Positions 4,701-52,526 of a stretch of 56,843 bases of DNA are shown here, piece after piece. The DNA lies in IMG/VR virus record IMGVR_UViG_3300037424_001259, positions 1-56,843 of that record; one strand, written 5' to 3'. This DNA comes from a virus. Lineage: Duplodnaviria; Caudoviricetes. Each line of letters opens with the position of its first letter. Within the stretch, counting starts at the first letter, position 1. A model generated the notes under the pieces. The model was not told the origin of the DNA and ran no database searches. It saw nothing but the letters and a program-made list of their open reading frames with translations. The translations under genes were made by a program, and so were the position numbers.

Positions 4701-5180
4701 ATGACGAAGAGGAAGAGAGACTACGCGACCGAAAAAGCGAACCTGATTGCGAAAAAGACGAGCACCGCAAGGATCGCGAACAAGCCGCTGGTCAAGACCA
4801 AACCCTACATCTCCAAGGCCCCGGCCAAGACGAAGGATGCAGTAGAAAAGCAAACGAGTCCGCTGCACTTTCCGACAACAAGCGACGTGATGACTACCGA
4901 GAAGTACAAGACAGTATCTGAAGTTTTTGCCGTCGCCATGAAGTGCGACTATTGGAAGGCCAAGGCCCTTGGATACAAAGATGCCTTGCAGCAGCAACAG
5001 AAGGGCCTGTCGCGGATGAAGAAGAGGTTCGACCGGATAAACGCGATCGTCGCGAAGCGCGAGAAGGCCGCGGCTGCAGAACGGGCGATCGGCAAGGAGA
5101 TGGCCAAGCGCCTCGACGGCATCCGAATGTTCACGGATTCCGCGGTGAAGGTCGAGAAGGTCGAGAAAAAGGCGGAGTAG
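4701..5180 (+). CDS. Basic coiled-coil hypothetical protein
   Basis: GGAGGAG SD before ATG 4701. Confidence 0.6.
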   Translation: MTKRKRDYATEKANLIAKKTSTARIANKPLVKTKPYISKAPAKTKDAVEKQTSPLHFPTTSDVMTTEKYKTVSEVFAVAMKCDYWKAKALGYKDALQQQQKGLSRMKKRFDRINAIVAKREKAAAAERAIGKEMAKRLDGIRMFTDSAVKVEKVEKKAE

Positions 5181-5184
5181 GCTG

Positions 5185-5493
5185 ATGAAGCAGGCTGTGG
5201 TCTACACCCGGGTCAGCACTGCGAAGCAGGCTGATGACGGCGTCAGCCTGGACGCACAGCGCGAGCGGGCCCTTGCCTACTGTGCGTTCAACGGCTTCGA
5301 GGTGATCGCCACTCTCGAGGACTCCGGCATCTCAGGCTCGAAGATGCACACCAGGCCGTCCCTGCTCCGGGCTATCGAAGCGGTCTGCAAGGCAAAAGGG
5401 GTCTTGGTCGTCTACAGCCTCTCGCGCATGGCCCGGAGCACCCAGGACGCCATGACCATCCGGATCCTGATGCAGGAGGAGAAGAAGGGGTGA
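5185..5493 (+). CDS. Truncated serine recombinase (catalytic domain only)
   Basis: YTRVST catalytic motif, SLDAQ, SG..RP.L and LVVYSLSRMARS; stops at 102 aa before helix E and any DNA-binding domain. Confidence 0.8.
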   Translation: MKQAVVYTRVSTAKQADDGVSLDAQRERALAYCAFNGFEVIATLEDSGISGSKMHTRPSLLRAIEAVCKAKGVLVVYSLSRMARSTQDAMTIRILMQEEKKG

Positions 5494-5675
5494 AGCGCAC
5501 GGAAAGCGCCCCGTGGTGTGTAGCGAAGGTCATGTGCAACAAATGCGGCCACGTCATGGTTTCTGTGTACCCAGCGGGAGAAGACTTCGAGAAGCACGAA
5601 TGTACAAAATGTCACGCAAAGAGTAACACCTTTATCGAGGGGCTTGGCAAAACATTTGGAGGAGCGAAGCGATGA
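5490..5675 (+). CDS. Small zinc-ribbon protein
   Basis: CNKC ... CTKC; GTGA coupling. Confidence 0.6.
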   Translation: MKRTESAPWCVAKVMCNKCGHVMVSVYPAGEDFEKHECTKCHAKSNTFIEGLGKTFGGAKR

Positions 5676-6145
5676 GACTTTCAGCGAACGAGCGGTACGA
5701 AATAGAGGCGTCGGCATTTCGTATTATGACGGGGCACATGGCTCCGGGGAAGTCCGCTTCGCCGATGTCCTACCCCGCGCCACATGAGGAGCGGCGGGCA
5801 GCGTGGGAAGAGTGGATCGAGAAGCACGGGGAAGTGATCCGGGCGCTGATGCGCGGAATCGAGGATTTCTTCCCTGATTCTGATCAAACGGGTTTTTGCC
5901 CGGACCCGAACGACAAGAACGACGACCACGTTGACCACGCAGCGGCGGAAGAGAAGAGCGTCCCGCCACCCGAGCTTTCTGTCCCCGCCGTTGAACTGAC
6001 TCCCGACTGCGTTCCCGGTCAGTTCGTGACCTGGACTGACGTGCAGGGGTGGACATACACCGGGACACTCAAGGAGTGGGACAACGGGACGGCTATTATC
6101 GAGTGGCCGATGATTCAGACGCCGCTGATTGCGGTAAGAGGGTAG
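5672..6145 (+). CDS. Hypothetical protein
   Basis: ATGA-coupled ORF with SD. Confidence 0.6.
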   Translation: MRLSANERYEIEASAFRIMTGHMAPGKSASPMSYPAPHEERRAAWEEWIEKHGEVIRALMRGIEDFFPDSDQTGFCPDPNDKNDDHVDHAAAEEKSVPPPELSVPAVELTPDCVPGQFVTWTDVQGWTYTGTLKEWDNGTAIIEWPMIQTPLIAVRG

Positions 6146-6150
6146 AGAAC

Positions 6151-6249
6151 ATGAAGACGCTGAAAATGCTCGTCCTTGCCGCTCTGCTTTGCTCGTTGTT
6201 TCTGACCGTCGCCGGTTGCCGCCTGGAAGACTGGGTTTTGATAAAATGA
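6151..6249 (+). CDS. Very short lipoprotein-like peptide (possibly a truncated gene)
   Basis: MKTLKMLVLAALLCSLFLTVAGC resembles a lipoprotein signal with lipobox, followed by only 9 residues. Confidence 0.4.
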   Translation: MKTLKMLVLAALLCSLFLTVAGCRLEDWVLIK

Positions 6250-6545
6250 TCTGCATTGTTCGATCTAGGGCGTGGATCACATTGGAATTCAAGTTGCAAG
6301 ATGTGTGGCTCGGTGCTTTTTGGTGTCATAAGTCAGCGAATTACACCGCCATTGGGCATGGCCACTGTGTGCGAGAGCGAGGCATCCGGGGGATCATCGA
6401 GAAGCGCGAGAAGCAACTCGATTCCGACCACAAAGTCCGCATGGCGATGGCAGAGCGACTCGACGCCGTGCGTGCGTTCACGAACCCGGACGCGAAGGTG
6501 ATGCGGTTCAGCGAGACGGCGAAGATGCCGGAGTCCGCGGCGTGA
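6246..6545 (+). CDS. Hypothetical chimeric protein; C-terminus paralogous to 4701-5180
   Basis: IIEKREK...MAERLDAVRAFT aligns with IVAKREK...MAKRLDGIRMFT. Confidence 0.5.
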   Translation: MICIVRSRAWITLEFKLQDVWLGAFWCHKSANYTAIGHGHCVRERGIRGIIEKREKQLDSDHKVRMAMAERLDAVRAFTNPDAKVMRFSETAKMPESAA

Positions 6546-6751
6546 GTCGTCAAGAGGCGGACTCCGGCGTCGTCTGGCCGACACCAGAGGTCATCGACTC
6601 CGCTCCGCTCTGGCTGGTGCGCCAGTTCTGGAAAGATCTACCGAAGCGCCCAGAGAATGAAAAGCAGGAGCAAATTCTCGAGAGAATTGCTATAATTTGT
6701 GAAGCGCATGGGTTGGTTGACGCTGACGGAAACTTGAAGGAGATTGCATGA
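6542..6751 (+). CDS. Hypothetical protein
   Basis: Coupled on both sides. Confidence 0.55.
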   Translation: MSRQEADSGVVWPTPEVIDSAPLWLVRQFWKDLPKRPENEKQEQILERIAIICEAHGLVDADGNLKEIA

Positions 6752-7098
6752 AGCACAAGGACATCGCTCGCGTGGCCCATCAGGTGAACCGGGAATATTG
6801 CAAAGCCCTCGGAGACATGAGCCAGGTCCCCTGGGAGCGGGCGCCGCAGTGGCAGCGCGACTCGGCCATCATGGGCGTGAAGCTGCACGCCGACAACCCC
6901 AAGGCCGGCCCGGAGACTTCGCACAAGTCCTGGATGGCACAGAAGGCCGCAGAGGGGTGGGTCTACGGCCTCGAGAAGAATCCTGTCCTGAAGACACACC
7001 CCTGTATGCTGCCTTTTGACCAACTCCCCGTCGAACAGCAGGCGAAGGACTTCATCTTCCGCGCCATCGTCCATGCGCTGAATCGGCAGAGGCCATGA
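6748..7098 (+). CDS. RyR-domain protein
   Basis: SHKSWM..K..EGWVYG..KN...KTHPCMLPFDQLP.EQQAKD matches the phage RyR-domain signature. Confidence 0.85.
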   Translation: MKHKDIARVAHQVNREYCKALGDMSQVPWERAPQWQRDSAIMGVKLHADNPKAGPETSHKSWMAQKAAEGWVYGLEKNPVLKTHPCMLPFDQLPVEQQAKDFIFRAIVHALNRQRP

Positions 7099-7310
7099 TG
7101 AAAGGCGGATTTTACCTGGAAATAGAGCACGACAAGAAGAGCGGGTCCGTCGAGATCATGCAGAAAAAATACGACGCCCGCGGGGAATGGACGTGCTTCG
7201 GCAGCATCTCACTCCATCATCTCGAAGCGGCGTTTCTTTCGATTGCGCTGGAGAAACACCTGCAGGACAAGCGCAGAAAGACGATCTTCGTCGGCAAGGA
7301 TCGGAAATGA
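7095..7310 (+). CDS. Hypothetical protein
   Basis: ATGA coupling. Confidence 0.55.
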   Translation: MMKGGFYLEIEHDKKSGSVEIMQKKYDARGEWTCFGSISLHHLEAAFLSIALEKHLQDKRRKTIFVGKDRK

Positions 7311-38672: not shown

Positions 38673-38893
38673 GTCTGGTAACCAAGGGTCTCGGCACTCG
38701 GCAGATGCTCCTTAAGGGGCTGGCTGTTGTCCTTGGCGCCATCTTGGAACAGAAGAAGGACACCGAGGCATTCATGCTATTCAACAAACGCAGACTTGCT
38801 AACCGGCGGGCGATAGAACTGGTACGATCAGATGAGCAAGACGTAATTGATATTTTTAATTGTCTGGCGGCGACCGAGGAGATATTCATATGA
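38669..38893 (+). CDS. Small hypothetical protein
   Basis: Coupled on both sides. Confidence 0.55.
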   Translation: MSLVTKGLGTRQMLLKGLAVVLGAILEQKKDTEAFMLFNKRRLANRRAIELVRSDEQDVIDIFNCLAATEEIFI

Positions 38894-41800
38894 GTGTCGG
38901 ATGCCTGAAGAAACACGGACTTGACCCCGGCACGATTGCCATTATTGAGAAGAAGGCGCTGAAGTACATCGCTGCCAAGGCAGAGATTCGTGACGCTTGG
39001 AGACAGGCGGCGCAGGAACATCTGCTTGATTTGGATGGGCAGAGGCAGAGGATTGAGGCTCTCGCGGCGCCGGCCGAGAGGAAGGCTGCTGCTGCCAAGG
39101 AAGAACGTCTTCCTGCCGCCATGCCGGCCCCTGCGGTCCCGGCGGAGAAGATCGCCGCGGTCGCCCCTCAGAAGAGCAACGCCGATCTCGCCATCGTCAA
39201 TGGGAACGCCGTGGCGAAGGACGAAGAGGCGCAGGTTCCTTTGATTCCAGAGAAGAAAGCGCGGCCGAGCATTCTCGAGGAGGCGCCGGCACCAAAGATC
39301 GGCGTGGATACTTCCTTCGATTTCGGGGCAAACGTCGCTCCCGCCCCCGCTCCAAAGCCCACGAACCCCGTCGCCGCGTACCAAGCGAAGATCAACGAAG
39401 AGTTCCCCCCAGGCGACACTCTTGTCCCCACCGAGCGGACAATTCATTCCAAAGGCGGCGTCATCGTTGATCGCCCTGCAAAGGACAAGCATCCTCGTGG
39501 TGGCGTCGTCATTCGTTTCGGATCGGGAAAGGAAAAGCATCTAACGCTTAAGGAAGCTCGCAAGTGGGAGGTCTTCAACGAACAAGACTTCCGCCTGATC
39601 GAGCAAGAGCGGTCCCGAAAAGAGATGAAAGGCAACGGAGAAGGCGCCTTCCTCATTGGCCTCATCAAGAAGTACGGGGGATTCGACCCAAGAATGGCCG
39701 GACTCCGCTCCGACTTTTTTCAGGACCTGAAGATTCCTCCAGGGATACTGAAAAAGGGGGCGCAGTCTGTCGACAAGCTGGCAAACGAACTCGGATACGA
39801 TGACTTTCACGACATGCTTGCCGATGTCAGGAGCGAACTCGAGACAGGGCGGCCTTCCTACAATGGTAAAAGAGATTTCCATGAAAACTTCCAACCAAGG
39901 GAGGTTCCCTATGGGCCTGTGCGTAGAGACACTGGAGAGAGAGAAGCTGGAACGCCATCCCGGCCAGCCAAGGAAACCAATGAGCCTGTGCGTTCCGGGA
40001 CCGGACGGAATGTGGATGATGCTACGGGACAACCCGTCGCCGGCCGCGAAGGATCTGGCGAGGGCGCTGATGCAGGAGGGAAGGGAGAACGCTATGGGGG
40101 GGATCTTGGGAACGCACGTCGTGTCCAAGGACGGGGAGATTCACATGACGTTGCGAGACAATCCGACGCCGGAGGCGCTGAGGTTCGCGAGGGAGTTGGC
40201 CTACGGGAAGTCTACGCCGTCAAGAGGCTACAAGAAAGTCTCCTCGAAAACAAAGAAATCAGCGAGGGCTTCAAGAAAAGAATCGCAGGAATAAAGCCCG
40301 CGCACCTTCCGCTCTCTCGCGCAGCAGAGGGCGAGTTGATGTCCGCTCTCTCAAAGTTCTTCGGGGTGTCGAAGAAGGTTATCATCGTCGACGCCAACGG
40401 TCTTTTCAACGGCGTCAAGGCGCTCGACAATTACATCTTCATCGACAAGGATGCCACGAATCTTCTCTCAAAGGTCTTCGTGCATGAGTTCGGCCACTTC
40501 AAAGGGAAAGAGCGCCAGGATCTCCACGACGTTCTCTGGCAACTTGTCGACCGCGAGAAGTTCAAGAAATGGCGAGCGGCCCGGGAAGCTACCCAAGAGC
40601 GCAGCGGCTATCCGTTTCTCTCTGAGGCCGCGGCGTTCGAGGAATTCACGAACGACATGATGGCCGAGGTCATCCACAACCCCGAGTTCTTTGAACGTCT
40701 CGCCGCCGAACACGTCGGCACTTTCCGCCGGATGATCATGTGGATCCGCGCCAAGATGATCGCGATGGGGATCAACCCGGAGGGGTTCGGGTACTACTTC
40801 TCTCGCCCTGGATCGTTCCCAGAAGCGGTGAAACAGATCGAGGACTTCGTTCGCAATCGGATCGAGAGCGTGCCGGGGGTGACGAAGGGCGATCTGGCGT
40901 TCTTCTCCCCCGCCAACGATCGTCAGTCCTGGGATCAATGGTCGACGAAAGAGAAGCAGGCCCGCCGTCTTGCCGCCGAAGCCAAGAAGGCCGGGGATGT
41001 CCAGACCGAGAACATGTGGACGGCCCGCGCAGATGAACTGAAAAGAAAGATCACCGCCGCTTCGTTGTCTGCAAACCCCGAGGATTTCTTCGGAAGAGCG
41101 ATGTTCTCGCCGCGGGACGACGCTCCGCCCGCCATGTCCGAAATGCTGACGGATTCCGTGTACAGAAAGAAAGTCAGCGACAATTACTTCAAGGACGAGA
41201 CGCTGTCTGCCAACAGCCGCCTAGTCCCGCAGGTTCCGCAGGGATTGAAACTCGGTATGTGGCGCTACGATGACTGGGGCAAAGGCGTTTACGGGCACGG
41301 GATGTCGCAGCTCAGACTCTTGGATCCAAGCACGCTCCTGCTCGGCGAAGACGTTGACCAGAATGGTCGACGCCCGGATGCCGACCGCTACGCTGAATGG
41401 TTCAAGGAAGGCAAGGCTGCCCCGCCGATCGAGGTCGTGGAGACGGACAAGGGCCTCATGCGCGTCTCAGACGGGCACCGCAGGGTAGCCTCTGCCAAGA
41501 AGAACGGTGTCCCGGTCCTGGCTTGGGTGTCGCCTTCGATGGACGTTCTCCCGGGCAAGGACGGCAAGTTGTCTCGGTACAATGGCGATCCGAAGATGCC
41601 TGTCATCAAGACCGGCCTGACCTACGAGGCATGGAAGGACGGCACTGGGAAGCGCACGACGCCGCTCGAGGGCGGATTCTCGGATCCGGGGCTTCCGGTG
41701 CCGCCGGACTTCCCGATGTTCTCCCCCCGCGCCCAAAAGCCCTACACCCCCGACTGGGCAGCGATCGCCGCCAGCCAGGATGTTGCCCATCAGGTGGCGC

Positions 41801-44661
41801 TGAGAAAGACCTGGGTGAACTCCGAGATCACAACCCTCGACAATGCCCTGCGCATCTGGCAGGACCGCAACGTCGACATGCTCCGAACGAAGCAGGACAT
41901 CGAGAAGCAAATCGGTGCGCTGAACGACGAGGTGAACTTCCGCCAGAAGGAAACCCTCGCGATCTCCAAGGTTGCGGATCGTCAAGGCGAACTCAAAAAG
42001 CGCTTCGAGAAACCCATTTCAGAATTGATCGCGCTGTACAACGAGACCATCGAGTCGGTCGGCGAATACCTGAGTATGCGCCACGCCGAGGAGTACAACG
42101 ATGTCATCGCCAAGCGCAACCCCGGTTTCGAGGGGCCGGGGTCCGGGATCGAGACTGAGGCCGCCCGGAAATACCTCGAGGGGCTCTCAAAGGAACGCCG
42201 CGAAGGACTCGAGGGAATCGAGGAACTCATCCGGGCTTACAGCGCCACCGTCGAGGACATGATGGTGGAGTACGGGCTTGAAACGCGGGAGACGATCGAC
42301 CTCTGGCGGGAAATGTACCCGCACTACGTTCCGTTCCAGCGCGAAGGGGCGGACGAGGGCGAGGGCATCGGCAACAGGACCGGCAAGGGCATGAACATCC
42401 GCGGCGGAGAGTCGAAGGTCGCGCACGGATCTTCCCTGCCGATCACGAACGTCCTGGCGAACATGTTCGAGAAGGGGCGCCGGACCATCATGCGCGGGGA
42501 GAAGAACCGCGTCGGCAACGCCACCTACGGCGCCGCGGTCAAGTACCAGAACAAGGACTTCTGGAAGGCGGTCAACCCCGAGCGCGTGAGCAAGAGACGG
42601 TTCGCCGCCCTCGAGGCCGAAGCCAAGGCCCTCCAGGAAGAAATCGACATGATCGCGCAGGGGGACTTCCTTGAGGATGAGAACGCCGGGAGGAACGCCG
42701 ACCTCGAGGCCAAATTGAAGAAGGTCGAGAAGGCCATCGACCGCTGGCACGTCGACCGGGCAGAACTCAACAGGGAAATGGCGCGGCTGGGAGTCCCTGC
42801 GGCCGACGTTGAAGCGATCTTCGACGAGCCAAAAGAGCGCTACCTCAACCCCTACACGAAGCAGACCGCGTGGCGCGTGAACTCTGCCGTGCGCGACAAG
42901 CCCTACGTCCTGGCGACTCGGTTCAAGGGGCAGGATCACTTCCTGTTCTTCAACAACCGCAACCCCCGCGCCCTCGAGATGGCGAAGGCGATGAAGAACA
43001 TGGACGTGGAGGATCTCCACTTCATGCTCGCGGCGATGTCGAAGTACACCCGCGTCTTCGCCTCGCTCTCGACGCAGTGGAACGTGTTCTTCGGCCCGGT
43101 CAACGCTGTCCGTGACGTGCAGGAGGCCATGCTGAACCTGACGAACACCCCACTGGCGGGTCGGCAGGACGACGTTGTGAAGATGGTGCCCAAGGCCATC
43201 CTAGGGATCTACAAGGACGTGCGGGGGCGCCGCGCTGGTATGGATCCTGACCTCACGGACCCGGTTGTGCTCGCGGCCAATGAGTACCGTGAGAATGGCG
43301 GGATGACAGGCTTCGTCACCATGCTTGCGGACGCACAGGAACGGGCGGAGTCGATCGAGAAGGAACTCAAGAAGATCACCGAAGGGAAATTCAGGGGCGC
43401 CGGCCGAGCAATCATCGACTGGGTCTCCGACTACAACGAGGCGCTCGAGAACGGGACCCGGCTGGCGGTCTTCATGACGGCTCGCGAGAACGGTCTGAGC
43501 CCCGAGCAGTCGGCCGCCATGGCGAAAGAGATCACGGTCAACTTCAACCGCAAGGGGCAGATCGCTTCTCAGGCCGGAGCGATGTACGCCTTCTTCAACG
43601 CCGCAGTTCAGGGTTCCGCTGTCATGGCGCGGACCTTGGCCGGGCCTGCAGGTAAGAGGATCCTAGCCGGTGGACTGGCCTTTGGGGCCATGCAGGCTCT
43701 CTTCTTGGCCGCCGCGGGCTACAAGGACGACGAGCCGCCGGACTTTGTGAAGCAAAGGAACATCATCATCCCCTGGTTCGACGAGGGCAAGAACTACACG
43801 ATGATCCCGCTGCCTCTTGGCTTCGCTATCCTCCCGAGCCTAGGCCGGATGGCTGCCGAGCAGATCATCGGCGAAGGCAAGCGGCCTGGGAAGCTGGCGA
43901 CGAACCTCCTAGGGCTCGTGGCCGACACCTTCATCCCCACCGGCGGCGGCGGGAACCCCAGTTCCCTATCGAAGTTCGCGGTCAACGCTGTCGCCCCGAC
44001 CGCGGGTCGGCCGATCGCAGCTCTGGCAATCAACGAGGACTACACCGGGCGCCCCGTCTTTCGGGACAACTTCTCCTTCCGCGAGCGCACTCCCGGATTC
44101 ACGCGCACCAAGGACTCAGCCTCCGCTCTCGGAAAGGCTGTCGCGGAGTTTTCCAACTGGGCCTCCGGGGGGACGCAGGACACGCCCGGATCGTTCTCTC
44201 CGACTGCAGACGAATTCGACTTCCTCGTTTCCCAGTACGCGGGAGGTGTTGGCCGGGAAGTAATGAAGACCGCAATAACCGCAAGCGCTGTTGCTCAGGG
44301 AAAAGAGATCCTCCCCTACAAAGTTCCTCTTGTCGGACGCTTCTGGGGGTCTGCTTCTGGATCCTATGCCGTCAAGAATCACTTCTACGAGAACCTCCGG
44401 CTGGCCTATGAGCACAAGAACGAGATCGAGGGCAGGGGAAAGCGCGGTGAAAACATCGAAGATTACATCAAGAAGAACCCGGAGGCTGGCGCGTTTAAGA
44501 TGGCGATGGCGTTCGAGGGGGATCTCGATAAACTCAAGGACGCCAAGACGAAAGCGAACGCACAGGGATTTCATGCTCACAACAGGTATTTCGATCAACA
44601 GGCTATCGGCATGATGGAAGAGTTCAACAAGCAGTTTGACAGGCTGAAGAAAAGGAAGTAG
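38890..44661 (+). CDS. Giant polyvalent ejection protein (HExxH peptidase-like, ParB/Srx-like and C-terminal LPD38-like domains)
   Basis: VFVHEFGH; PPIEV....G.MRVSDGHRRV; EITVNFNRKG, YAFFNAAVQG and IPLPLGF; ATG at 38890 coupled by ATGA. Confidence 0.8.
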   Translation: MSVGCLKKHGLDPGTIAIIEKKALKYIAAKAEIRDAWRQAAQEHLLDLDGQRQRIEALAAPAERKAAAAKEERLPAAMPAPAVPAEKIAAVAPQKSNADLAIVNGNAVAKDEEAQVPLIPEKKARPSILEEAPAPKIGVDTSFDFGANVAPAPAPKPTNPVAAYQAKINEEFPPGDTLVPTERTIHSKGGVIVDRPAKDKHPRGGVVIRFGSGKEKHLTLKEARKWEVFNEQDFRLIEQERSRKEMKGNGEGAFLIGLIKKYGGFDPRMAGLRSDFFQDLKIPPGILKKGAQSVDKLANELGYDDFHDMLADVRSELETGRPSYNGKRDFHENFQPREVPYGPVRRDTGEREAGTPSRPAKETNEPVRSGTGRNVDDATGQPVAGREGSGEGADAGGKGERYGGDLGNARRVQGRGDSHDVARQSDAGGAEVREGVGLREVYAVKRLQESLLENKEISEGFKKRIAGIKPAHLPLSRAAEGELMSALSKFFGVSKKVIIVDANGLFNGVKALDNYIFIDKDATNLLSKVFVHEFGHFKGKERQDLHDVLWQLVDREKFKKWRAAREATQERSGYPFLSEAAAFEEFTNDMMAEVIHNPEFFERLAAEHVGTFRRMIMWIRAKMIAMGINPEGFGYYFSRPGSFPEAVKQIEDFVRNRIESVPGVTKGDLAFFSPANDRQSWDQWSTKEKQARRLAAEAKKAGDVQTENMWTARADELKRKITAASLSANPEDFFGRAMFSPRDDAPPAMSEMLTDSVYRKKVSDNYFKDETLSANSRLVPQVPQGLKLGMWRYDDWGKGVYGHGMSQLRLLDPSTLLLGEDVDQNGRRPDADRYAEWFKEGKAAPPIEVVETDKGLMRVSDGHRRVASAKKNGVPVLAWVSPSMDVLPGKDGKLSRYNGDPKMPVIKTGLTYEAWKDGTGKRTTPLEGGFSDPGLPVPPDFPMFSPRAQKPYTPDWAAIAASQDVAHQVALRKTWVNSEITTLDNALRIWQDRNVDMLRTKQDIEKQIGALNDEVNFRQKETLAISKVADRQGELKKRFEKPISELIALYNETIESVGEYLSMRHAEEYNDVIAKRNPGFEGPGSGIETEAARKYLEGLSKERREGLEGIEELIRAYSATVEDMMVEYGLETRETIDLWREMYPHYVPFQREGADEGEGIGNRTGKGMNIRGGESKVAHGSSLPITNVLANMFEKGRRTIMRGEKNRVGNATYGAAVKYQNKDFWKAVNPERVSKRRFAALEAEAKALQEEIDMIAQGDFLEDENAGRNADLEAKLKKVEKAIDRWHVDRAELNREMARLGVPAADVEAIFDEPKERYLNPYTKQTAWRVNSAVRDKPYVLATRFKGQDHFLFFNNRNPRALEMAKAMKNMDVEDLHFMLAAMSKYTRVFASLSTQWNVFFGPVNAVRDVQEAMLNLTNTPLAGRQDDVVKMVPKAILGIYKDVRGRRAGMDPDLTDPVVLAANEYRENGGMTGFVTMLADAQERAESIEKELKKITEGKFRGAGRAIIDWVSDYNEALENGTRLAVFMTARENGLSPEQSAAMAKEITVNFNRKGQIASQAGAMYAFFNAAVQGSAVMARTLAGPAGKRILAGGLAFGAMQALFLAAAGYKDDEPPDFVKQRNIIIPWFDEGKNYTMIPLPLGFAILPSLGRMAAEQIIGEGKRPGKLATNLLGLVADTFIPTGGGGNPSSLSKFAVNAVAPTAGRPIAALAINEDYTGRPVFRDNFSFRERTPGFTRTKDSASALGKAVAEFSNWASGGTQDTPGSFSPTADEFDFLVSQYAGGVGREVMKTAITASAVAQGKEILPYKVPLVGRFWGSASGSYAVKNHFYENLRLAYEHKNEIEGRGKRGENIEDYIKKNPEAGAFKMAMAFEGDLDKLKDAKTKANAQGFHAHNRYFDQQAIGMMEEFNKQFDRLKKRK
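39911..40294 (+). CDS. Overprinted +1-frame gene nested in the giant protein
   Basis: GGAGG SD 6 nt before ATG 39911 (alternative ATGs at 39881 and 39980); internal repeat LRDNP.P.A...AR.L conserved only in this frame. Confidence 0.6.
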   Translation: MGLCVETLEREKLERHPGQPRKPMSLCVPGPDGMWMMLRDNPSPAAKDLARALMQEGRENAMGGILGTHVVSKDGEIHMTLRDNPTPEALRFARELAYGKSTPSRGYKKVSSKTKKSARASRKESQE

Positions 44662-46447: not shown

Positions 46448-46519
46448 CCCCTACCCGTCACCCCCCTGCGGCCTCCGGCACCCGGATCCTCCCCGGGATA
46501 ATCCTCATGGCGCTGGGGA

Positions 46520-46996
46520 TCACGGGGAATCCTCCCCAGGCCGCGCTGCGCCCTGAGAAGCATGAAACCTTACGTGGCAGCGGACACAAAGCCAGCGCAC
46601 GACGAGGGGCGCAGAATAATCGTCATGGTGCGCGTGAAGTCTGGATTTAATTTCTCCGCACTCCGAACACAACGAGGGCTTTTGTATTGATCCAGATCTC
46701 TTCCCGCGCCCTATTGCAACGTGCGCCTTTCGTTCTTTCGGATGCGATATCCTCCAGGTTCTTGTGCGTTGCTTCTTTGCCGCCTTCCTTGCGTCAGAAT
46801 AAAGAGAATATTTATCAGACGAAGGGTATTTGTGCCTCGACTCTTTTTGGCAATCTCGGCATTCGTACTGAAATCCTCGGGCATTAGCGGTGTGCCTTTT
46901 GTACTCTGATGCGGCCTTTATTGTTTTACAAGAACTACACCGAAGAAGCTGAGCTTCGGCCCTTGGCTCTTCTGGTAATGTTTCGTTCTCCTTCAT
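46520..46996 (-). CDS. HNH endonuclease with N-terminal zinc finger
   Basis: CSSC...CRDC, then CSECG...LHAHHDDYSAPLVVRWLCVRCH. Confidence 0.85.
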   Translation of the reverse strand: MKENETLPEEPRAEAQLLRCSSCKTIKAASEYKRHTANARGFQYECRDCQKESRHKYPSSDKYSLYSDARKAAKKQRTRTWRISHPKERKAHVAIGRGKRSGSIQKPSLCSECGEIKSRLHAHHDDYSAPLVVRWLCVRCHVRFHASQGAARPGEDSP

Positions 46997-47091
46997 CCCT
47001 CCTCCTTCCCCATCGCGGGGGTGATAAACCGCAGCGGCTTTGCACGTTCGGGACCGTACCGTGCTCAACGCGCAAAGCCGTTACCACCTAA

Positions 47092-47445
47092 TCACTCGGG
47101 AAAAAAGGTTAAAATAGCACGAGCCAGCGACCTTAGTTCTTCTGGCGTTGCGTCGTTTTTCATTGTGTTTGCTTTTCTGGAAATTACCCATACGTTGCCG
47201 GGGATATATCCGATTGAATTTACTTTTCGGTCAAGTGACGGGGAGTTGTCGTTCTTAGATGTTGAACCACGATAAAGTTTGATACCGAGAAGTGGGCATG
47301 TTTCTGGAACGATTATGTCATCCACCGTAATAGAAAACGGTATTGAGTCGCGCTTGCTTCTGTACTTTGCTACAGCAAGCATGTGCTCTTTGAGGTGAGC
47401 CAGGAAATAACGCTTTCGTGTCTCTGGCTTGCTTTTCCCGCTCAT
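47092..47445 (-). CDS. HNH-like endonuclease
   Basis: CPLLG...SPSLDR.....GY..GNV.VIS.KAN.MK.DAT.EEL. Confidence 0.85.
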   Translation of the reverse strand: MSGKSKPETRKRYFLAHLKEHMLAVAKYRSKRDSIPFSITVDDIIVPETCPLLGIKLYRGSTSKNDNSPSLDRKVNSIGYIPGNVWVISRKANTMKNDATPEELRSLARAILTFFPE

Positions 47446-47832
47446 TTAGACACCTCCCGGAATATACTCTTGGTTAGGCTGCAAAACTGCATCAGGAGTG
47501 TCGCGCTTCCGAGGGTACTTGTTTCGGCACTCCTCTGCCGAGGTTACACCAAGCGCCTTCCCGCACTCTGCAATCAACGAATGGTAAGAGATTGGCTTGT
47601 CTCTGAATTCCATCGCGTCCATGTACCAACGCGAAAGCAACCACTCAAGAAGACATATCCTATTTTGCCCCGACATCACATTTATCCGCGAAGCGTCCAA
47701 AGCACGTTCAAGGTTTTCTATCTTTGTGGCGGCTTCGCCCATCTGCTTATTGCATGTCTCGCGCTCAAACCGCTCCCCGTGAACTGCGTCCATGTTCACC
47801 GATGCGCGGAGCCTCCTTGCAATGTCGCTCAT
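47446..47832 (-). CDS. Cassette 1 hypothetical protein (3' end runs past the array boundary)
   Basis: ORF coupled to 47829-48107. Confidence 0.65.
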   Translation of the reverse strand: MSDIARRLRASVNMDAVHGERFERETCNKQMGEAATKIENLERALDASRINVMSGQNRICLLEWLLSRWYMDAMEFRDKPISYHSLIAECGKALGVTSAEECRNKYPRKRDTPDAVLQPNQEYIPGGV

Positions 47833-48107
47833 CCCGCAAGCCCTTTTTGTCTTCCGCAGACGCGAGAGATGGTTTCTCCAAATGCCACGAATTGCTCAAC
47901 CGTCCTCCGTGCCGCTGCCAACTCCTGTTCCTGTTTTGCGACGAGCGATTGCAGGTGTGAAGCGAAAACAGAAACTTTCGTTTGCTGCTCGCTGGCTGGG
48001 AGTTCTTCGATCATCACGCAGAGTTTGTGCATCCGTCCTGCGAGGTACGGAACGGTATTCTCGCCAAGAACCTCATCCACCAGCCTGTCGATATTCGCCA
48101 TCTCCAT
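47829..48107 (-). CDS. Cassette 1 hypothetical protein
   Basis: ORF with SD starting just inside attC1. Confidence 0.65.
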   Translation of the reverse strand: MEMANIDRLVDEVLGENTVPYLAGRMHKLCVMIEELPASEQQTKVSVFASHLQSLVAKQEQELAAARRTVEQFVAFGETISRVCGRQKGLAG

Positions 48108-48131
48108 TCCCTTTCTGCCGGATCAGGAGGA

Positions 48132-48190
48132 GCCTAACCCACGCATGGAGGAGACGCGGAAACCGCGCTCCTCATAACTTCATGTTAGGT
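48132..48190 (+). repeat. attC site 1 (59 bp)
   Basis: GCCTAAC CCACG CATgGAGG AGaC GCGG AAA CCGC GCT CCTCATA ACTTCAT GTTAGGT (lower case = unpaired bases). Confidence 0.9.
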
Positions 48191-48480
48191 GGTAAAAAGA
48201 TATCAATTTTGTCTCGCATGTCCCCGAGAGCCGCGTGGCCGTAGTTTTCAGACCAATCGTCGAAGAGTTGGCGGGACTCCCGGAGTAATTCAACCAATTT
48301 TGAAATTCGTTGTTCGGCTGAGAGGCATTCCTTGCCGCGCTTTGACCCTTTACCCTCCTCCCACCCTGGACCCTGCATCGAACATTCGATCCCCTCTTGA
48401 CAGAAAAATTCTTCGGGACACTGGCAGGGCTCGCAGAACTCGTCACCGGCATCAATCTCCATGGCTATCAGTCGTTTCAT
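48172..48480 (-). CDS. Cassette 2 Cys-rich hypothetical protein
   Basis: AGGAGG SD; stop lies inside attC1. Confidence 0.7.
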   Translation of the reverse strand: MKRLIAMEIDAGDEFCEPCQCPEEFFCQEGIECSMQGPGWEEGKGSKRGKECLSAEQRISKLVELLRESRQLFDDWSENYGHAALGDMRDKIDIFLPPNMKL

Positions 48481-48505
48481 AACATCCCTCCTGGTTATGA
48501 AGACC

Positions 48506-48563
48506 ACCTAACCAAGTGCTGTAGTTGACCGCGAGGCGCGGCAACTAAGCACCCATGTTAGAT
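48506..48563 (+). repeat. attC site 2 (58 bp)
   Basis: ACCTAAC CAAGT GCTgTAGT TGaC CGCG AGG CGCG GCA ACTAAGC ACCCAT GTTAGAT. Confidence 0.9.
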
Positions 48564-49000
48564 GCGGAACCGAAACACCGATGCCACATCACCAGCGACC
48601 CGGCCACCGCAACATTGTAGCTCTCCGTCCGCACGCTCTCCAGGCTCACGACGTGCTGACACTTCGCGAGGATCTCCTTCGGTAATCCATGGTCTTCTGC
48701 CCCGAGCAAATACACGGCCCGTTCCGGGTGCTTGAATTGCGCCAGCGGCGTTCCTCCCATTTCGACCGCTACTAATGGCGCATCATAGGGCCGGGACAAG
48801 AGGAACAGATCCCATGTCGCGTGCTCACGGAGCGGTACGTGCCGCCACGTTTTCAGCGTGTCGCTCGCCTGTTTCGGATAACGAGAACCAATTGTGAAAA
48901 TCCCCGTCGCCCCGAGTTGCGAAGCAGAGCGCCAGAGCGTGCCGAGGTTCATTGGCGTCTTGTGATGGTAAATCCCGATCTCGAAATACCCGCGCATCAC
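48545..49000 (-). CDS. Cassette 3: SpoU/TrmH-family (SPOUT) RNA 2'-O-methyltransferase
   Basis: NLGTLWRSA..LG (motif 1), LLGAEDHGL (motif 2) and ESYNVAVAG (motif 3). Confidence 0.9.
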   Translation of the reverse strand: MMRGYFEIGIYHHKTPMNLGTLWRSASQLGATGIFTIGSRYPKQASDTLKTWRHVPLREHATWDLFLLSRPYDAPLVAVEMGGTPLAQFKHPERAVYLLGAEDHGLPKEILAKCQHVVSLESVRTESYNVAVAGSLVMWHRCFGSASNMGA

Positions 49001-49018
49001 AACTCCTTTCGGAAGAGC

Positions 49019-49071
49019 ATCTAACCCAGCAGTGAACCGGACGCTACGCGCCGGTTACCGCACTGTTAGAC
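49019..49071 (+). repeat. attC site 3 (53 bp)
   Basis: ATCTAAC CCAGC AGTgAACC GGaC GC TAC GC GCC GGTTACC GCACT GTTAGAC. Confidence 0.9.
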
Positions 49072-49319
49072 CGCAAGAACTGCATACCAGCCTCGGTGAT
49101 CTCCCAACGCAACCACGGATAGCCCTCGGCTTTTGGCACGATGAATTTTCGCGTTTCGAGTTCAAGAACCAAAGAGCGCAGCCACTGCTTGTCCATGTCC
49201 CATATGCTGACTCGCGGAGAATTAGAAAGCACCGCGAGCGCATTTGCCGTGGTCCGCATCTTCGGCTTCAAGTCTGCGAGGTCTCCAGAAAAACTATCAA
49301 GAAAAATAACTCCCGGCAT
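49044..49319 (-). CDS. Cassette 4 small winged-helix-like protein
   Basis: AAGGAG SD; C-terminal WEITEAGMQFL wing motif; stop lies inside attC3. Confidence 0.7.
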   Translation of the reverse strand: MPGVIFLDSFSGDLADLKPKMRTTANALAVLSNSPRVSIWDMDKQWLRSLVLELETRKFIVPKAEGYPWLRWEITEAGMQFLRSNSAVTGA

Positions 49320-49345
49320 TTGTTCCAGTTCTCCTTTCCCGTGGG

Positions 49346-49404
49346 GTCTAACCCACGCATGGACCTGACCGCGAGACGCGGCAGGTCATGACTTCATGTT
49401 AGGT
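49346..49404 (+). repeat. attC site 4 (59 bp)
   Basis: GTCTAAC CCACG CATgGACC TGaC CGCG AGA CGCG GCA GGTCATG ACTTCAT GTTAGGT. Confidence 0.9.
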
Positions 49405-49656
49405 GGATAAACAGCCACGGGCCAAACTCGCAAGACAATTACATTCGGGAACCTCGCTATACTTTCTCGCTGGTGCTAAGTTCTCCGCGTCTATGCACGC
49501 CTGCAACCGCTGCGGATCTTCACCCTTGCCGAGCGACACGTTAAGCAGGATGCAATGCTTTCTTCCTCTTGCCGCCCGCTTCACGTATTGGCAAGACCCG
49601 CAAATGTGAACAGAGGGGCTACTGTCGATCTTGATTCGCAGGTATCGCGTTGCCAT
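49399..49656 (-). CDS. Cassette 5 gene 4, Cys-rich
   Basis: TAATG coupling; stop TAA lies in the attC4 core. Confidence 0.6.
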   Translation of the reverse strand: MATRYLRIKIDSSPSVHICGSCQYVKRAARGRKHCILLNVSLGKGEDPQRLQACIDAENLAPARKYSEVPECNCLASLARGCLST

Positions 49657-49838
49657 TACATAAACCCGCACTTTCTCATCATCGCCATCATGTCCTTGAA
49701 CCCGACAACAATCCATTCCTTCTTCTTGAGCGGAAGCGAAAAATGGAACTCCCCGGCGTTGGGGTTTAAAACATCGCCATCACGAAAGTATCGAATCAGG
49801 TTGTCATTCTCTTTGCAGGTGTACTTTACGGTCTTCAT
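49656..49838 (-). CDS. Cassette 5 gene 3
   Basis: GGAGG SD; coupled. Confidence 0.6.
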   Translation of the reverse strand: MKTVKYTCKENDNLIRYFRDGDVLNPNAGEFHFSLPLKKKEWIVVGFKDMMAMMRKCGFM

Positions 49839-49994
49839 TTATTCACCCTCCGTCAAACAACCTTCCGGCATCTCGTTTTCATACACGAGCTTGTGTTGCT
49901 CGTCCCGGCCTACTCCCCGCCCGCAGATCGGGCAAAAAAACACAATCCCCCGCTTCCCGTATGGCCGTATTTCGCATTCTGTTTTGCCGCCCAT
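49839..49994 (-). CDS. Cassette 5 gene 2 (51 aa, FCPICG)
   Basis: Read manually: MGGKTECEIRPYGKRGIVFFCPICG... Confidence 0.45.
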   Translation of the reverse strand: MGGKTECEIRPYGKRGIVFFCPICGRGVGRDEQHKLVYENEMPEGCLTEGE

Positions 49995-50011
49995 GTTCTC
50001 GTGGTAGAGGC

Positions 50012-50209
50012 TCACTTTCCATTTTCTCCTTTCATGTATTCCCTTATCCCATCACACATCAATTGCAACTTTCTGACGTATTCCCGAGCGGGGTGCGTAT
50101 TGCCGTGCCCGTCAAGCCAAACAACATCTTCCCACATCGTTACTCTATCGCACCGATCAAGAAGGAGAAGGAGAACCTTCTTGTAACCCTTATTACCTAG
50201 GCCACTCAT
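50012..50209 (-). CDS. Cassette 5 gene 1
   Basis: GGAGG SD before ATG 50209. Confidence 0.6.
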   Translation of the reverse strand: MSGLGNKGYKKVLLLLLDRCDRVTMWEDVVWLDGHGNTHPAREYVRKLQLMCDGIREYMKGENGK

Positions 50210-50236
50210 CACCCCTCCAATCAAAGCAAAATCACT

Positions 50237-50293
50237 TCCTAACCCGAGCATGAAGCTGACCGCTAGGAGCGGCAGCTTATGCTTTTGTTAGAT
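50237..50293 (+). repeat. attC site 5 (57 bp)
   Basis: TCCTAAC CCGAG CATgAAGC TGaC CGCT AGG AGCG GCA GCTTATG CTTTT GTTAGAT. Confidence 0.9.
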
Positions 50294-50878
50294 GGATAAC
50301 CGCAACTGACGCACCCACTCCGAACGCCCCGTTGCACGCTCGATCTCCTTGGCGTTCTCCTCCGCGTGATAGTTAATCCCGTGCTGTGCCTCAGACACCG
50401 CAGCAACGTAGTAGGCCAGTGCCGGTTTCGCGTTGGCAGACTTCAAGGACTCGCAGATGTAATCAATTCCGTTGCCACTGATCCCGATTTGCTGAAGCAT
50501 GAAATCTTTCAGCCCCTTGTGCTCTGGTGTCGGCGGTCGCCACGCCTTGACCTGCTCGGCCATCGCGGTCAGGCGTTCGTTCGCGGCTTGGTCCTTTGCC
50601 AGCCACTGTTCGGTGCGGGAAACATCAGCGGCCTTCTCGGACTGCCCAAACGCAAGGCGCTCATCGGTGGTCATGGCCTTCAGTCGCGCCAATTTCTCAC
50701 GGGACTCGACCAAACGCTTCGCGTGATAGTCCGAAGGCTCGAACTTGTCCGGAACGGGCGCGTCATTTGGATCGTCACGCATTTCGATCAACGCCCCGAA
50801 AGCGCGGGCGCATCCCATAATGAACTCCTGAAACGTCTGCCCATTGTCCATCAGCTTCGCGGTGTACCCTGTTGGCAT
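50288..50878 (-). CDS. Cassette 6 conserved phage hypothetical protein (MPTGYTA family)
   Basis: MPTGYTA...F..F...CARAFGA...MRD and W.PPT.EH..LK.FM.QQI motifs. Confidence 0.8.
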   Translation of the reverse strand: MPTGYTAKLMDNGQTFQEFIMGCARAFGALIEMRDDPNDAPVPDKFEPSDYHAKRLVESREKLARLKAMTTDERLAFGQSEKAADVSRTEQWLAKDQAANERLTAMAEQVKAWRPPTPEHKGLKDFMLQQIGISGNGIDYICESLKSANAKPALAYYVAAVSEAQHGINYHAEENAKEIERATGRSEWVRQLRLSI

Positions 50879-50911
50879 TTCGATCTCCTTTCAAGATTAA
50901 CTACAAAAACC

Positions 50912-50968
50912 ATCTAACCCAGCCGTTGTAGCCGACGCCTACGGCGCGGCTAAACGCTACTGTTAGAT
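50912..50968 (+). repeat. attC site 6 (57 bp)
   Basis: ATCTAAC CCAGCC GTTgTAGC CGaC GCC TAC GGC GCG GCTAAAC GCTACT GTTAGAT. Confidence 0.9.
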
Positions 50969-51237
50969 GGAAACTGAAAACCACAATACAGATTGTCTTC
51001 GGCAATCCGCTTGATACTCGCCAGCAGCCCGAGAAGCAAATCGTTCTGCGCTCCCGGAAGCGTCCCGGTGTGAGCGATGATCCTCCGCAGCGTGTCCTTG
51101 AACCGCTCCGACTCGTCGTCGTTGAGGCAGTCCCGGAACTCAACAGAAACGATTCTTCCGCCCTTCCATCCGTCGCCAGCGGTCACTCCGGGTTCGGTCC
51201 CGTCCGCAAACTCGAATACTGCCGTATACCGTTTCAT
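50950..51237 (-). CDS. Cassette 7 hypothetical protein
   Basis: GGAGGAG SD; stop lies inside attC6. Confidence 0.7.
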   Translation of the reverse strand: MKRYTAVFEFADGTEPGVTAGDGWKGGRIVSVEFRDCLNDDESERFKDTLRRIIAHTGTLPGAQNDLLLGLLASIKRIAEDNLYCGFQFPSNSSV

Positions 51238-51257
51238 GCTACTCCTCCGGTTGTGCC

Positions 51258-51313
51258 ATCTAACCCACGGTTGTAGCCGACGCCTACGGCGCGGCTAAAC
51301 GCTACTGTTAAAA
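51258..51313 (+). repeat. attC site 7 (56 bp)
   Basis: ATCTAAC CCACG GTTgTAGC CGaC GCC TAC GGC GCG GCTAAAC GCTACT GTTAAAA. Confidence 0.9.
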
Positions 51314-51769
51314 TCGCTCCTCGACCCAAACCCCGCCCTTGCGCTGGATCGCCACGAAGTTAAATTCTGGAAACAGGTCAGCAGCGACCTTGATGCGCAC
51401 CCGGGCGGCCTCTCTCCAGAAGCCCTTGACTTCGTGGAACTGGAACACGTCGCAGTCTTTGTCCTCGTTCCTTGCGACGACAAGGAAGTCTGGTTTGAAC
51501 CATGCTCTGTTGGCAAGCCGCAGGCGGATAGCCTCGAATTTCCACGACACAATCACTCTGGCATGGCGCAGGATCTCAAGGTGGTCGGCATACTTTGCTT
51601 CCGTTGGGTTCATTCCGCGAGGCGTAGGCTTGCTCTTGGCAACCGTCTCCTTTGCCACGATCGGTTGCTTCTGGCACACAACTTTATGTTGAGGGTTGAT
51701 CTGTAATAGCGCTTGCTCTCTGTGCGCGGGAGAGAGCATCGCGAGGTCGTCTTCGATTGTTCTAGCCAT
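51308..51769 (-). CDS. DUF1064-like PD-(D/E)XK endonuclease
   Basis: MNPTEAKYA..L, W.FEAI.LRLA....KPDF, HEVKGFW and RIKVAA motifs. Confidence 0.8.
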   Translation of the reverse strand: MARTIEDDLAMLSPAHREQALLQINPQHKVVCQKQPIVAKETVAKSKPTPRGMNPTEAKYADHLEILRHARVIVSWKFEAIRLRLANRAWFKPDFLVVARNEDKDCDVFQFHEVKGFWREAARVRIKVAADLFPEFNFVAIQRKGGVWVEERF

Positions 51770-51899
51770 GCTTGTTACTCATCACCACGTCGGGTCATCT
51801 TTAGGTTGTCTTTTCGGATTCGGATCATCTCTTTCGTCGCGGTACTCGGGCGACTCTCGGTACTCAGCGGCGATCTCGTCTTCGTATGAAACTGACATT

Positions 51900-52238
51900 T
51901 CAGTTCGCCCCTCCCGGGACGATAATCAGGGGTTTCGACGCGGCCACCCGCTTGCTCATGATGCCTGAGACTGCAGTGATGCCCCGCAGAACGAGTTGCG
52001 GATCGTGCCCGAGAAGGGCGACGAAAGAACTCGATGCAATGGCGACCGCCGGGTCTTGAGCAAGGCGGCCTCCTATAAAAAACACCGGCTTGCCGTCTCT
52101 GATCGCAGCGACGTAAAGGAATGTTGTGGCGGGGTCGCTGGCGAGGGCCGCAATGTCTTCTCGGCGGCCTGCAGGGATGCCGTTCTCTTCCGTCGTCGGT
52201 GAATCAGGCTGCGCATCCTTGACTTCCTCGTCGCTCAT
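51900..52238 (-). CDS. Hypothetical protein
   Basis: SD and ATGA coupling; IIVP C-terminus. Confidence 0.6.
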   Translation of the reverse strand: MSDEEVKDAQPDSPTTEENGIPAGRREDIAALASDPATTFLYVAAIRDGKPVFFIGGRLAQDPAVAIASSSFVALLGHDPQLVLRGITAVSGIMSKRVAASKPLIIVPGGAN

Positions 52239-52417
52239 TTCTCGATCCTCCTAACCGCTCCGTGCTCGTCGTACTGGTAGAGCTGCCCGTCCTGCGTCTT
52301 GATCGTGACGCCGGCTTTCATGCGAGAAGGGAGAAGCCCGCGGTGCTCGCTCTTTGCATGTTGTGCGGCCTTGTAGTCGTCGCCTTTGCTGCGGCCCGGG
52401 TGCTTGTGGTCGCTCAT
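52235..52417 (-). CDS. Hypothetical protein
   Basis: Strong GGAGGAGG SD. Confidence 0.6.
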   Translation of the reverse strand: MSDHKHPGRSKGDDYKAAQHAKSEHRGLLPSRMKAGVTIKTQDGQLYQYDEHGAVRRIEK

Positions 52418-52526
52418 CTAGCCCTCCTCCTCGCCCCTTACTCCGAAACCACGATGGCTGTCCACAACACGGTAGAGCGTGCTGAACCATCGGCCATTTC
52501 AGGGGCGCCTCCCGTTTTTTGTTGGA

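Follow-up and report, generated by a model that had tools for sequence, protein, structure and literature searches.

Integrons are usually regarded as devices of bacteria, and recent work has described those on chromosomes as reservoirs of genes for defence against phages. Here, we analysed an array of seven integron-type attC recombination sites and the small genes between them at positions 47473-51313 of the genome of a sediment phage (Duplodnaviria; Caudoviricetes), the complete IMG/VR virus record IMGVR_UViG_3300037424_001259, whose 56,843 bp are referred to as the window. The first report of attC clusters in phages dates from 2023 and described small arrays of two to three sites. According to that study by Qi et al., 10,705 NCBI phage genomes contained three complete integrons, one In0 element and 17 clusters of attC sites lacking an integrase (CALINs), and where site numbers are given for the CALINs, these have two to three predicted attC sites each, with three in Tetrasphaera phage TJE1 (PMC9892861). 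The integrase IntI1 recombined five of the six attC sites that were tested, which came from virulent phages, and five methyltransferases were found among the phage cassettes, whereas the 16 attC sites of a temperate Vibrio prophage were described as a fragment of the chromosomal integron of its host (PMC9892861). attC sites end in inverse cores with the consensus RYYYAAC (R'') and GTTRRRY (R') (PMC9892861; bioRxiv 10.1101/2022.09.11.507474). Integron integrases have also been described to insert cassettes at attG sites, with the consensus 5'-GWT-3' and without strand bias, which has been proposed as an origin of CALINs (bioRxiv 10.1101/2022.09.11.507474).

Phage-borne attC arrays have therefore already been published, and the array is not new in kind; the initial annotation of the window, which was made from the sequence alone and inferred what would be a phage-side cassette system, went too far on this point, as phage CALINs were already reported by Qi et al. 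2023 (PMC9892861). What is unusual at this locus is the number of seven sites, the uniform location of the genes on the attC bottom strand and the phage-type cargo. We show that the array is a real, unusually large and clean phage CALIN, and with seven well-preserved sites it is a much clearer example than the small arrays reported previously.

Seven attC sites in a phage record without an integrase

Seven elements of 53-59 nt each are found on the plus strand of the window within 48132-51313, placed between or at the ends of open reading frames (ORFs) of the minus strand: e1 (48132-48190), e2 (48506-48563), e3 (49019-49071), e4 (49346-49404), e5 (50237-50293), e6 (50912-50968) and e7 (51258-51313). 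All coordinates of the initial annotation were confirmed and its cassette lengths were reproduced exactly; from G to G of successive R' cores, beginning with a lone GTTAGGC at 47473, these are 711, 373, 508, 333, 889, 675 and 345 bp. On the plus strand, all elements start with RYYYAAC (GCCTAAC, ACCTAAC, ATCTAAC, GTCTAAC, TCCTAAC, ATCTAAC and ATCTAAC in e1 to e7, respectively). The R' core follows GTTRRRY in six of them, and the GTTAAAA of e7 is consistent with a hybrid end site. A strict motif matched six times in the window and not once in 100 shuffles, with e3 lying outside this motif.

The seven elements also share one fold, in which an R box of 5-7 bp leads into an internal loop and then an L stem. 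The L stem carries a single bulged base; a second bulge, which is an A on the plus strand and a T on the minus strand in all seven elements, follows, and a short terminal stem with a triloop closes the structure. As single-stranded DNA, the minus strands of e1 to e6 fold with z scores of -4.1, -6.4, -4.7, -3.7, -5.7 and -6.2, that is, between -3.7 and -6.4, and none of 200 shuffles folds as well; e7, in which the R box is broken, reaches a z score of -2.3. The stems are supported by covariation, as 89% of the alignment cells are paired compared with 30-44% when the partners are slid, both sides change in 9 of 19 pairs, and the observed score was reached by none of 500 shuffles.

To score such sites, two covariance models were used: R1, which was built from the seven window elements, and R2, for which five independent sites were used, two of them class 1 attC sites and the other three from TJE1; of the latter, two had been assayed by Qi et al. 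With R1, the seven elements score 74.7, 71.3, 48.4, 76.8, 68.4, 72.3 and 66.3 bits (e1 to e7), and no eighth copy was found in the 56.8 kb with the filters off. With R2, also with the filters off, the elements are the top seven hits in the window, all on the plus strand, with 34.7 (e6), 32.3 (e7), 25.8 (e2), 25.5 (e5), 24.4 (e4), 19.9 (e3) and 16.1 bits (e1, the lowest of the seven); five of the seven exceed 20 bits and the best background hit in the window has 15.0 bits. The attC anatomy and the seven covariance-model hits that the initial annotation had expected for a CALIN are thus borne out by the sequence, the fold and an independently trained model.

The comparison also holds in the reverse direction. 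A BLAST search with e6 against plasmids gave only short matches (E 0.4 or worse), three of which pointed to an attC of a class 1 integron, with a match of 26 nt. The class 1 integron on plasmid NZ_MK933279, which carries intI1, aadA16, aac(6')-IIa, a cassette with a reverse ORF and qacEdelta1, has two intact attC sites, and R1 detects both of them on the top strand with 20.5 and 17.6 bits; the three published TJE1 attC sites are detected with 27.3, 13.8 and 8.0 bits. In attC sites, the recombinogenic bottom strand is marked by extrahelical bases of the R''-L'' arm, and all seven elements have two single-base bulges, whose positions and arm agree with those of the class 1 and TJE1 sites. When bacterial genomes were scanned with a pattern and the matches scored with R1, tandem arrays of the same attC subfamily, scoring 24-45 bits, emerged in Acidobacteriota, Isosphaeraceae, Desulfonema and Desulfobacteraceae metagenome-assembled genomes (MAGs) and others. 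One of these arrays (L118 in genome G006) starts approximately 0.7 kb from a frameshifted intI, and the Desulfonema genome encodes an intact IntI (486 bits) on a contig other than that of its R1-type array. The placement of an IntI fragment of another genome (G004) inside the L113 array was rejected, as R1 finds no site in the locus around the fragment, and adjacency to intI is claimed for L118 in G006 alone. We conclude that all seven elements are bona fide attC sites of the integron type.

The contig that carries them derives from a tailed phage, and no match to TIGR02249 or PF00589, the families used to search for a tyrosine recombinase, was found across the whole record, which has an estimated completeness of 84%. 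Because the phage lacks any tyrosine recombinase, the array is a CALIN: it consists of seven sites on one strand, within 3.2 kb and with no intI in the record. A complete integron, which would comprise intI with an attI next to it and the Pc promoter, is not present, since the record has no tyrosine recombinase and the position expected for attI is occupied by a bare junction.

Gene polarity, shared cassettes and array ends

The initial annotation had overlooked that the polarity of the attC sites is opposite to that of the cassette genes. R1 scores the elements with 48-77 bits on the plus strand and with 9-17 bits on the minus strand, and R2 likewise favours the plus strand. The top strand was calibrated with the class 1 integron and TJE1, in both of which the cassette genes are on the plus strand, as for the orientation of the model. 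The bacterial arrays provided a third calibration: of 19 decisive intervals, 17 have their longer open frame on the attC top strand, and a further 10 intervals are ambiguous; with the inclusion of L084, a phage contig that was binned in an Anaeromyxobacter MAG, these numbers are 18 of 21 and 11. In the window, the families that could be assigned to cassette genes, SpoU (Pfam), phrog_8905 and phrog_3876, are on minus-strand ORFs. A codon-usage score trained on the long genes of the phage is negative for every plus-strand ORF scored in the array and positive for the minus-strand ORFs, except for one doubtful ORF and one alternative-frame call, and none of the 10 plus-strand ORFs of the array that were tested has a Pfam match. 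Every cassette gene is located on the attC bottom strand, which is the reverse of canonical cassettes, and the gene therefore travels with an attC site upstream of its start codon. The start codon and ribosome binding site (RBS) are found 15-35 nt from the R'' core of the attC of the same cassette. The array is thus antisense to the normal integron polarity and codirectional with the surrounding phage genes, and the canonical gene cassette, in which the ORF shares the attC top strand and precedes the attC that belongs to it, is not seen. Bottom-strand genes are also found in two other, unrelated phages, namely on the L084 contig and in genome G001.

A bottom-strand ORF is also present in the class 1 integron of plasmid NZ_MK933279 (L001, 3686-4036), in the cassette that precedes qacEdelta1; it gives a full-length match to phrog_13613 (E 4.5e-26), a phage protein family of unknown function, and the attC of this cassette is the best plasmid BLAST match to e6. 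As one anecdote from a class 1 integron, this observation hints that reverse-ORF cassettes may carry phage-type genes.

One of the window cassettes, which encodes a SpoU-family protein and has e3 as its site, recurs on the L084 contig (ORF at 4909-5352) with 86% nucleotide and approximately 97% amino acid identity. The homology starts exactly at TG/TTAGATGCGG, which is the G/TT point (the slash marks the boundary) of the R' core of e2, 48557/48558 in the window. It spans the ORF, the leader and R'' and fades inside the attC, so that the R'' and leader of e3 are kept in L084 and the centre is diverged. Left of this breakpoint lies e2 in the window and an unrelated hairpin in L084; on the right, the neighbouring cassettes differ, and in L084 two DNA methyltransferases (phrog_757 and phrog_954) are encoded on the bottom strand. 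The L084 contig represents a different phage with its own large terminase (TerL, E 5e-98), portal, major head protein and adaptor, and besides SpoU it gives one other weak protein match to the window. Its region 5367-7179 contains four attC sites, and besides small ORFs its cassettes carry SpoU and the two DNA methyltransferases; those genes that are annotated lie on the bottom strand. The SpoU cassette is shared at a G/TT boundary between unrelated phages.

Sites and leaders are also found in other contexts. Both e5, which is 93.7% identical to the L084 attC at 6622-6684, and the leader plus R'' of e1 recur in L084 adjoining different genes; for the latter, 32 nt are 97% identical (window 48110-48141, L084 7098-7129) and the downstream genes are unrelated. 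The attC thus seems to bring along a conserved leader, located upstream of the RBS. e5 was found again in a second sediment study (run X2), with 67 of 68 identical positions and with different sequences on both flanks. In G001, a terminally redundant phage of 60 kb that is unrelated to the window phage and to the L084 phage, two attC sites of the same subfamily bracket an RNA ligase gene on the bottom strand (59431-60105, corresponding to L054 891-1565; phrog_14301, E 5e-70). Within the window, e4 is 74% identical to e1 over 69 nt, and e6 and e7 share 41 identical nt (50925-50965 and 51270-51310), at which independent assemblies break; this identity suggests a recent duplication or exchange and is a likely source of assembly ambiguity.

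The initial annotation had further stated that the phage acquires, excises and reorders its genes as cassettes. The SpoU cassette that is shared at G/TT with an unrelated phage supports part of this claim, but present-day events were overstated: in the assembled contigs of two runs, no deletion junctions and none of the circular cassette junctions that had been suggested as a check were seen.

Both ends of the array are G/TT junctions with ordinary phage DNA, which otherwise forms an intergenic gap of 27 nt. The left end is a lone R'-type core, GTTAGGC, with an extension of 13 nt (47473-47492, plus strand), which is joined at 47473/47474 to unstructured intergenic phage DNA. These 20 nt are 100% identical to the sequence following an attC R' in L084 (5416-5435). 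The DNA to the left of the array (47410-47480) shows no fold (z scores of +1.0 to +1.3) and holds the RBS and start of the gene at 47092-47445. At the right end, e7 is complete up to its G, and the TTA that follows is the stop codon of the resolvase-like gene at 51308-51769. To judge from their anatomy, the junctions at the array ends would match an attG insertion. We also observed that the R' extension, GTTAGGCTGCAAAAC..., which continues beyond the 7-nt core, opens several cassettes (window 47473-47492; L084 5416-5435 and 7169-7188). A search of viral contigs with a 15-nt extended-R' motif gave 26 loci without a single R2 hit, and these were discarded as unrelated matches.

Cassette cargo and phage setting

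All cargo ORFs are on the minus strand. Cassette 1 contains two ORFs with no assigned function, 47446-47832 (128 amino acids) and 47829-48107 (92 amino acids), which have positive codon-usage scores, the overlapping plus-strand ORFs all being negative, and no match in Pfam, PHROG or NCBIfam; the first of them runs 27 nt beyond the G/TT junction. The small ORF of cassette 2 (48172-48507, up to 111 amino acids) probably starts at the ATG near 48482, after a GGAGGG RBS, and no match was found in the same three databases. Cassette 3 encodes a predicted SpoU-family RNA 2'-O-methyltransferase of 151 amino acids (48545-49000; Pfam PF00588, E 4.2e-21), with weak NCBIfam matches to RlmB and TrmL that remain under their cut-offs. 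Cassette 4 has an ORF of 91 amino acids with no assigned function (49044-49319), a positive codon-usage score and no match in Pfam, PHROG or NCBIfam. Three to four small ORFs with no family match are located in cassette 5, of which 49399-49716 is doubtful and has a negative codon-usage score, and 49656-49838, 49839-50015 and 50012-50251 have positive ones. The protein of 196 amino acids encoded by cassette 6 (50288-50878) belongs to a phage-only family without known function (phrog_8905, E 3.8e-27); its nearest Atlas clusters are 75-100% viral and a homologue with 71% identity is found on the viral contig L188. Its TAA stop codon is located within the R' core of e5, and the last ORFs of cassettes 5 and 6 both end in the TAA of the neighbouring R' core. 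Finally, the 95-amino-acid ORF of cassette 7 (50950-51237) matches phrog_3876 over residues 1-40 (E 5e-6) and has a positive codon-usage score. The cargo is of phage type. Based on family names alone, one might speculate that the cargo of phage cassettes possibly has a role in counter-defence.

The window is a linear contig with a CheckV completeness of 84%. Between 0.5 and 44.7 kb, the plus strand carries the genes for virion and packaging functions, namely those for a terminase-like protein, a head-tail adaptor, a major head protein, a head closure protein and a giant protein of 1,933 amino acids. The ORF for the latter (38860-44661) resembles giant phage proteins without known function (phrog_14770, E 9e-152). 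TerL and the major capsid protein share 27-34% identity with their counterparts in the nearest isolated tailed phages, from which no host could be inferred. The minus strand from 44.9 kb to the end carries DNA-metabolism and small accessory genes, among them those for a RecE/YqaJ exonuclease, two endonuclease VII/HNH-like proteins and a resolvase-like protein, and the array sits in this arm. The initial annotation had placed the array in a phage early operon; the label 'early' is not supported, and the sequence shows a minus-strand arm with genes of these two kinds. The array genes score below the core genes on the phage-trained codon-usage measure.

On the left, the array is flanked by the minus-strand gene of an endonuclease VII/HNH-like endonuclease (47092-47445; phrog_3322, E 3.3e-30) and on the right by a minus-strand gene (51308-51769) whose product has a Holliday-junction-resolvase-like C-terminus (phrog_190, E 1.4e-10; phrog_18669, E 4.1e-11). 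Relatives of the endonuclease with 37-55% identity are encoded on 26 viral contigs, none of which has other genes of this arm, and from its sequence distribution the endonuclease gene looks like an independently mobile, homing-type gene. Searches for relatives of the phage gave little: the 26 viral loci found with the endonuclease have at most 55% identity, none is syntenic and none has R1 matches; no relative was found for the 153-amino-acid protein of the right flank; a core protein of 406 amino acids led to one distant viral locus and to nothing in metagenome contigs; and a blastn search of 47000-52000 against 50,697 phage records gave no match.

Origin of the array and comparison with known systems

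We consider it probable that the locus is an attC CALIN that arose by an attG-type insertion through a host integrase acting in trans and that carries its cassette genes on the bottom strand. The array would have been inserted at a non-att attG (GWT) site in the 27-nt gap between the resolvase-like and endonuclease genes. As the phage lacks a tyrosine recombinase, the integrase must have been supplied in trans by a host cell. A cassette unit would reach from the TT after one R' core through the G of the next. The folded bottom strand, which is the minus strand of the window, would recombine as attC x attC or attC x attG, and in this way cassettes would pass from one genome to another. We infer that IntI catalysed these events and that they may continue today.

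Several observations weigh against this interpretation. No integron integrase was found in the MAG that holds L084, where the best match has 82 bits, and none is known for the host of the phage. In the assembled contigs of the two runs, no joints, deletions or circle junctions were seen at the array, and the searches returned no close relative that would allow an empty site or an alternative array to be compared. Both covariance models were built ad hoc and their E-values are rough; R2 stands in for the IntegronFinder model, and the R2 score of e1 is barely above the background (16.1 versus 15.0 bits). The bulge nearest to the R box is a G on the top and a C on the bottom strand, as opposed to a top C and a bottom G in the class 1 and TJE1 sites. 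In five of the seven cassettes (1, 2, 3, 4 and 7), the last ORF crosses its own G/TT boundary by 13-27 nt. In addition, the left flank of the SpoU cassette in L084 is not plain DNA; it is a divergent attC-like hairpin, bracketed by ATCTGAC...GTTAGAT and undetected by R1, and the description of this junction as non-attC DNA was dropped once a wider refold had revealed the hairpin. None of 13 other SpoU homologues (2 viral and 11 metagenome loci; 48-73% identity) has an R1-type attC, and these genes therefore mostly live outside cassettes. On L188 (4900-5650), the stop codon of the gene for the 196-amino-acid homologue (71% identity) is within an ATCTAAC, but the gene is flanked only by CTAAC...GTTAG hairpins, which are too divergent for R1 or R2 and may represent a different attC lineage or decayed sites.

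Some of these points would also fit an array of real attC sites that is a dead relic, the fossil of one or few captures, in which recombination ceased as the phage rarely or never meets an integrase and the hairpins are kept between the genes as spacers that are neutral or of slight use. The absence of an integrase from the phage and from the MAG holding L084, the assembled contigs without junction variants, the attC centre of the SpoU cassette, which diverged between window and L084 while the gene remained 86% conserved, and the broken R box of e7 all speak for such a relic. On the other hand, in six of the seven sites the R box is complete, the two bulges are retained and the stems are compensated, as would be expected if selection still acted on the fold, and the 41 nt shared by e6 and e7 together with the 94-99% identity of e5 to copies elsewhere suggest recent exchange. 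We therefore regard a relic as possible but rather doubtful. It is also conceivable, although improbable, that the repeats serve as patches of homology for the RecE/YqaJ-type system of the phage and that modules are moved by this system and not by IntI. The phage encodes a RecE-like exonuclease with neighbouring recombination genes, the repeats share identical stretches of 20-41 nt, and homologous or illegitimate recombination at GTTRRRY motifs is raised in the main text of Qi et al. (PMC9892861). However, the left end joins an R' core exactly at G/TT to DNA without homology or structure, the right end is also a G/TT point, at a stop codon, and the homology of the SpoU cassettes begins at G/TT and not within a shared repeat.

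We think it very unlikely that the elements are RNA signals that merely resemble attC sites, for instance processing sites, terminators, attenuators or translational couplers of a polycistronic transcript. Their intergenic position upstream of an RBS on the coding strand would be expected for such signals, and attC sites are said to contain weak terminators in the study by Qi et al. (PMC9892861), but Rfam gave no match at the gathering score in the window, and none of the 10 terminator-like hits in 46500-52500 overlaps with any element. The elements are also confined to a single 3.8 kb stretch of the phage, are detected, clearly better on one strand than on the other, by models that represent true attC sites, and belong to a subfamily that forms arrays near intI in bacteria. 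An even smaller chance, which we consider negligible, remains for a bacterial cassette array that was mis-joined into a viral contig during assembly. In line with a mis-join, the GC content of the array (47473-51313) is 54.3% compared with 59.1% for the whole contig, the Logan contigs of the likely source run end at e6 and e7, and the bin 49932-50105 is without cover. Against it, a single independent Logan contig of 49,770 nt spans the phage body through e1-e4, phage genes are present on both flanks, the cargo families are phage-type, and the same arrangement is found in two other phage contigs.

Returning to the phage CALIN with host integrases acting in trans, the point most worth following is that the polarity is uniformly inverted in three unrelated phages, whose cargo is phage-type and possibly serves counter-defence. 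Qi et al. do not discuss this reversal, which contrasts with the canonical polarity of same-subfamily arrays in bacteria, and the words 'opposite', 'antisense' and 'reverse' do not occur in their main text (PMC9892861). In full-text literature searches, we came across neither a survey at virome scale nor a treatment of reversed polarity in phage arrays, although absence from these searches is not proof. If the reversed polarity were general, it would point to a phage-specific population of cassettes and to a trade in counter-defence genes among phages via host integrases. We would go further only tentatively, and speculate that phages maintain their own pool of inverse-polarity cassettes, which are swapped between unrelated phages by host integrases in trans, a scenario that we hold to be possible but on balance unlikely. 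In such a pool, accessory and counter-defence genes of phages, namely those for an RNA ligase, the SpoU RNA methylase, DNA methylases and phage-only proteins without known function, would be trapped between attC sites, which host integrases would insert at GWT sites of phage operons. The resulting units, with an attC upstream of the gene, would be silent in a bacterial array and expressed when codirectional in a phage operon. Phages, like bacteria, would then use integrons as a market in which genes are exchanged.

Among known systems, Tetrasphaera phage TJE1 is similar in that attC sites in a phage without an integrase bound small accessory genes, including methyltransferases (PMC9892861). 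It differs in having three sites compared with the seven described here, and its genes are canonical on the attC top strand, whereas those of the window are on the bottom strand. With class 1 integron arrays such as that of NZ_MK933279, the locus shares the attC anatomy, the bulge positions, the L-box (...AGCCGAC...GCGGCT...), the G/TT boundaries and the cassette sizes; unlike these arrays, it has no intI, attI or Pc, its cargo is phage-type and does not consist of resistance genes, its polarity is reversed, and the bottom-strand bulge closest to the R box is a C and not a G. The sedentary chromosomal arrays of environmental bacteria contain the same attC subfamily in tandem, and one of them adjoins a degraded intI, but they are canonical in polarity and the phage array is reversed. 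Lastly, both array ends are G/TT points with non-att DNA and fit the 5'-GWT-3' consensus described for attG insertion; such insertion was obtained experimentally in the E. coli chromosome, according to the preprint (bioRxiv 10.1101/2022.09.11.507474), and is inferred here from the anatomy of the phage junctions.

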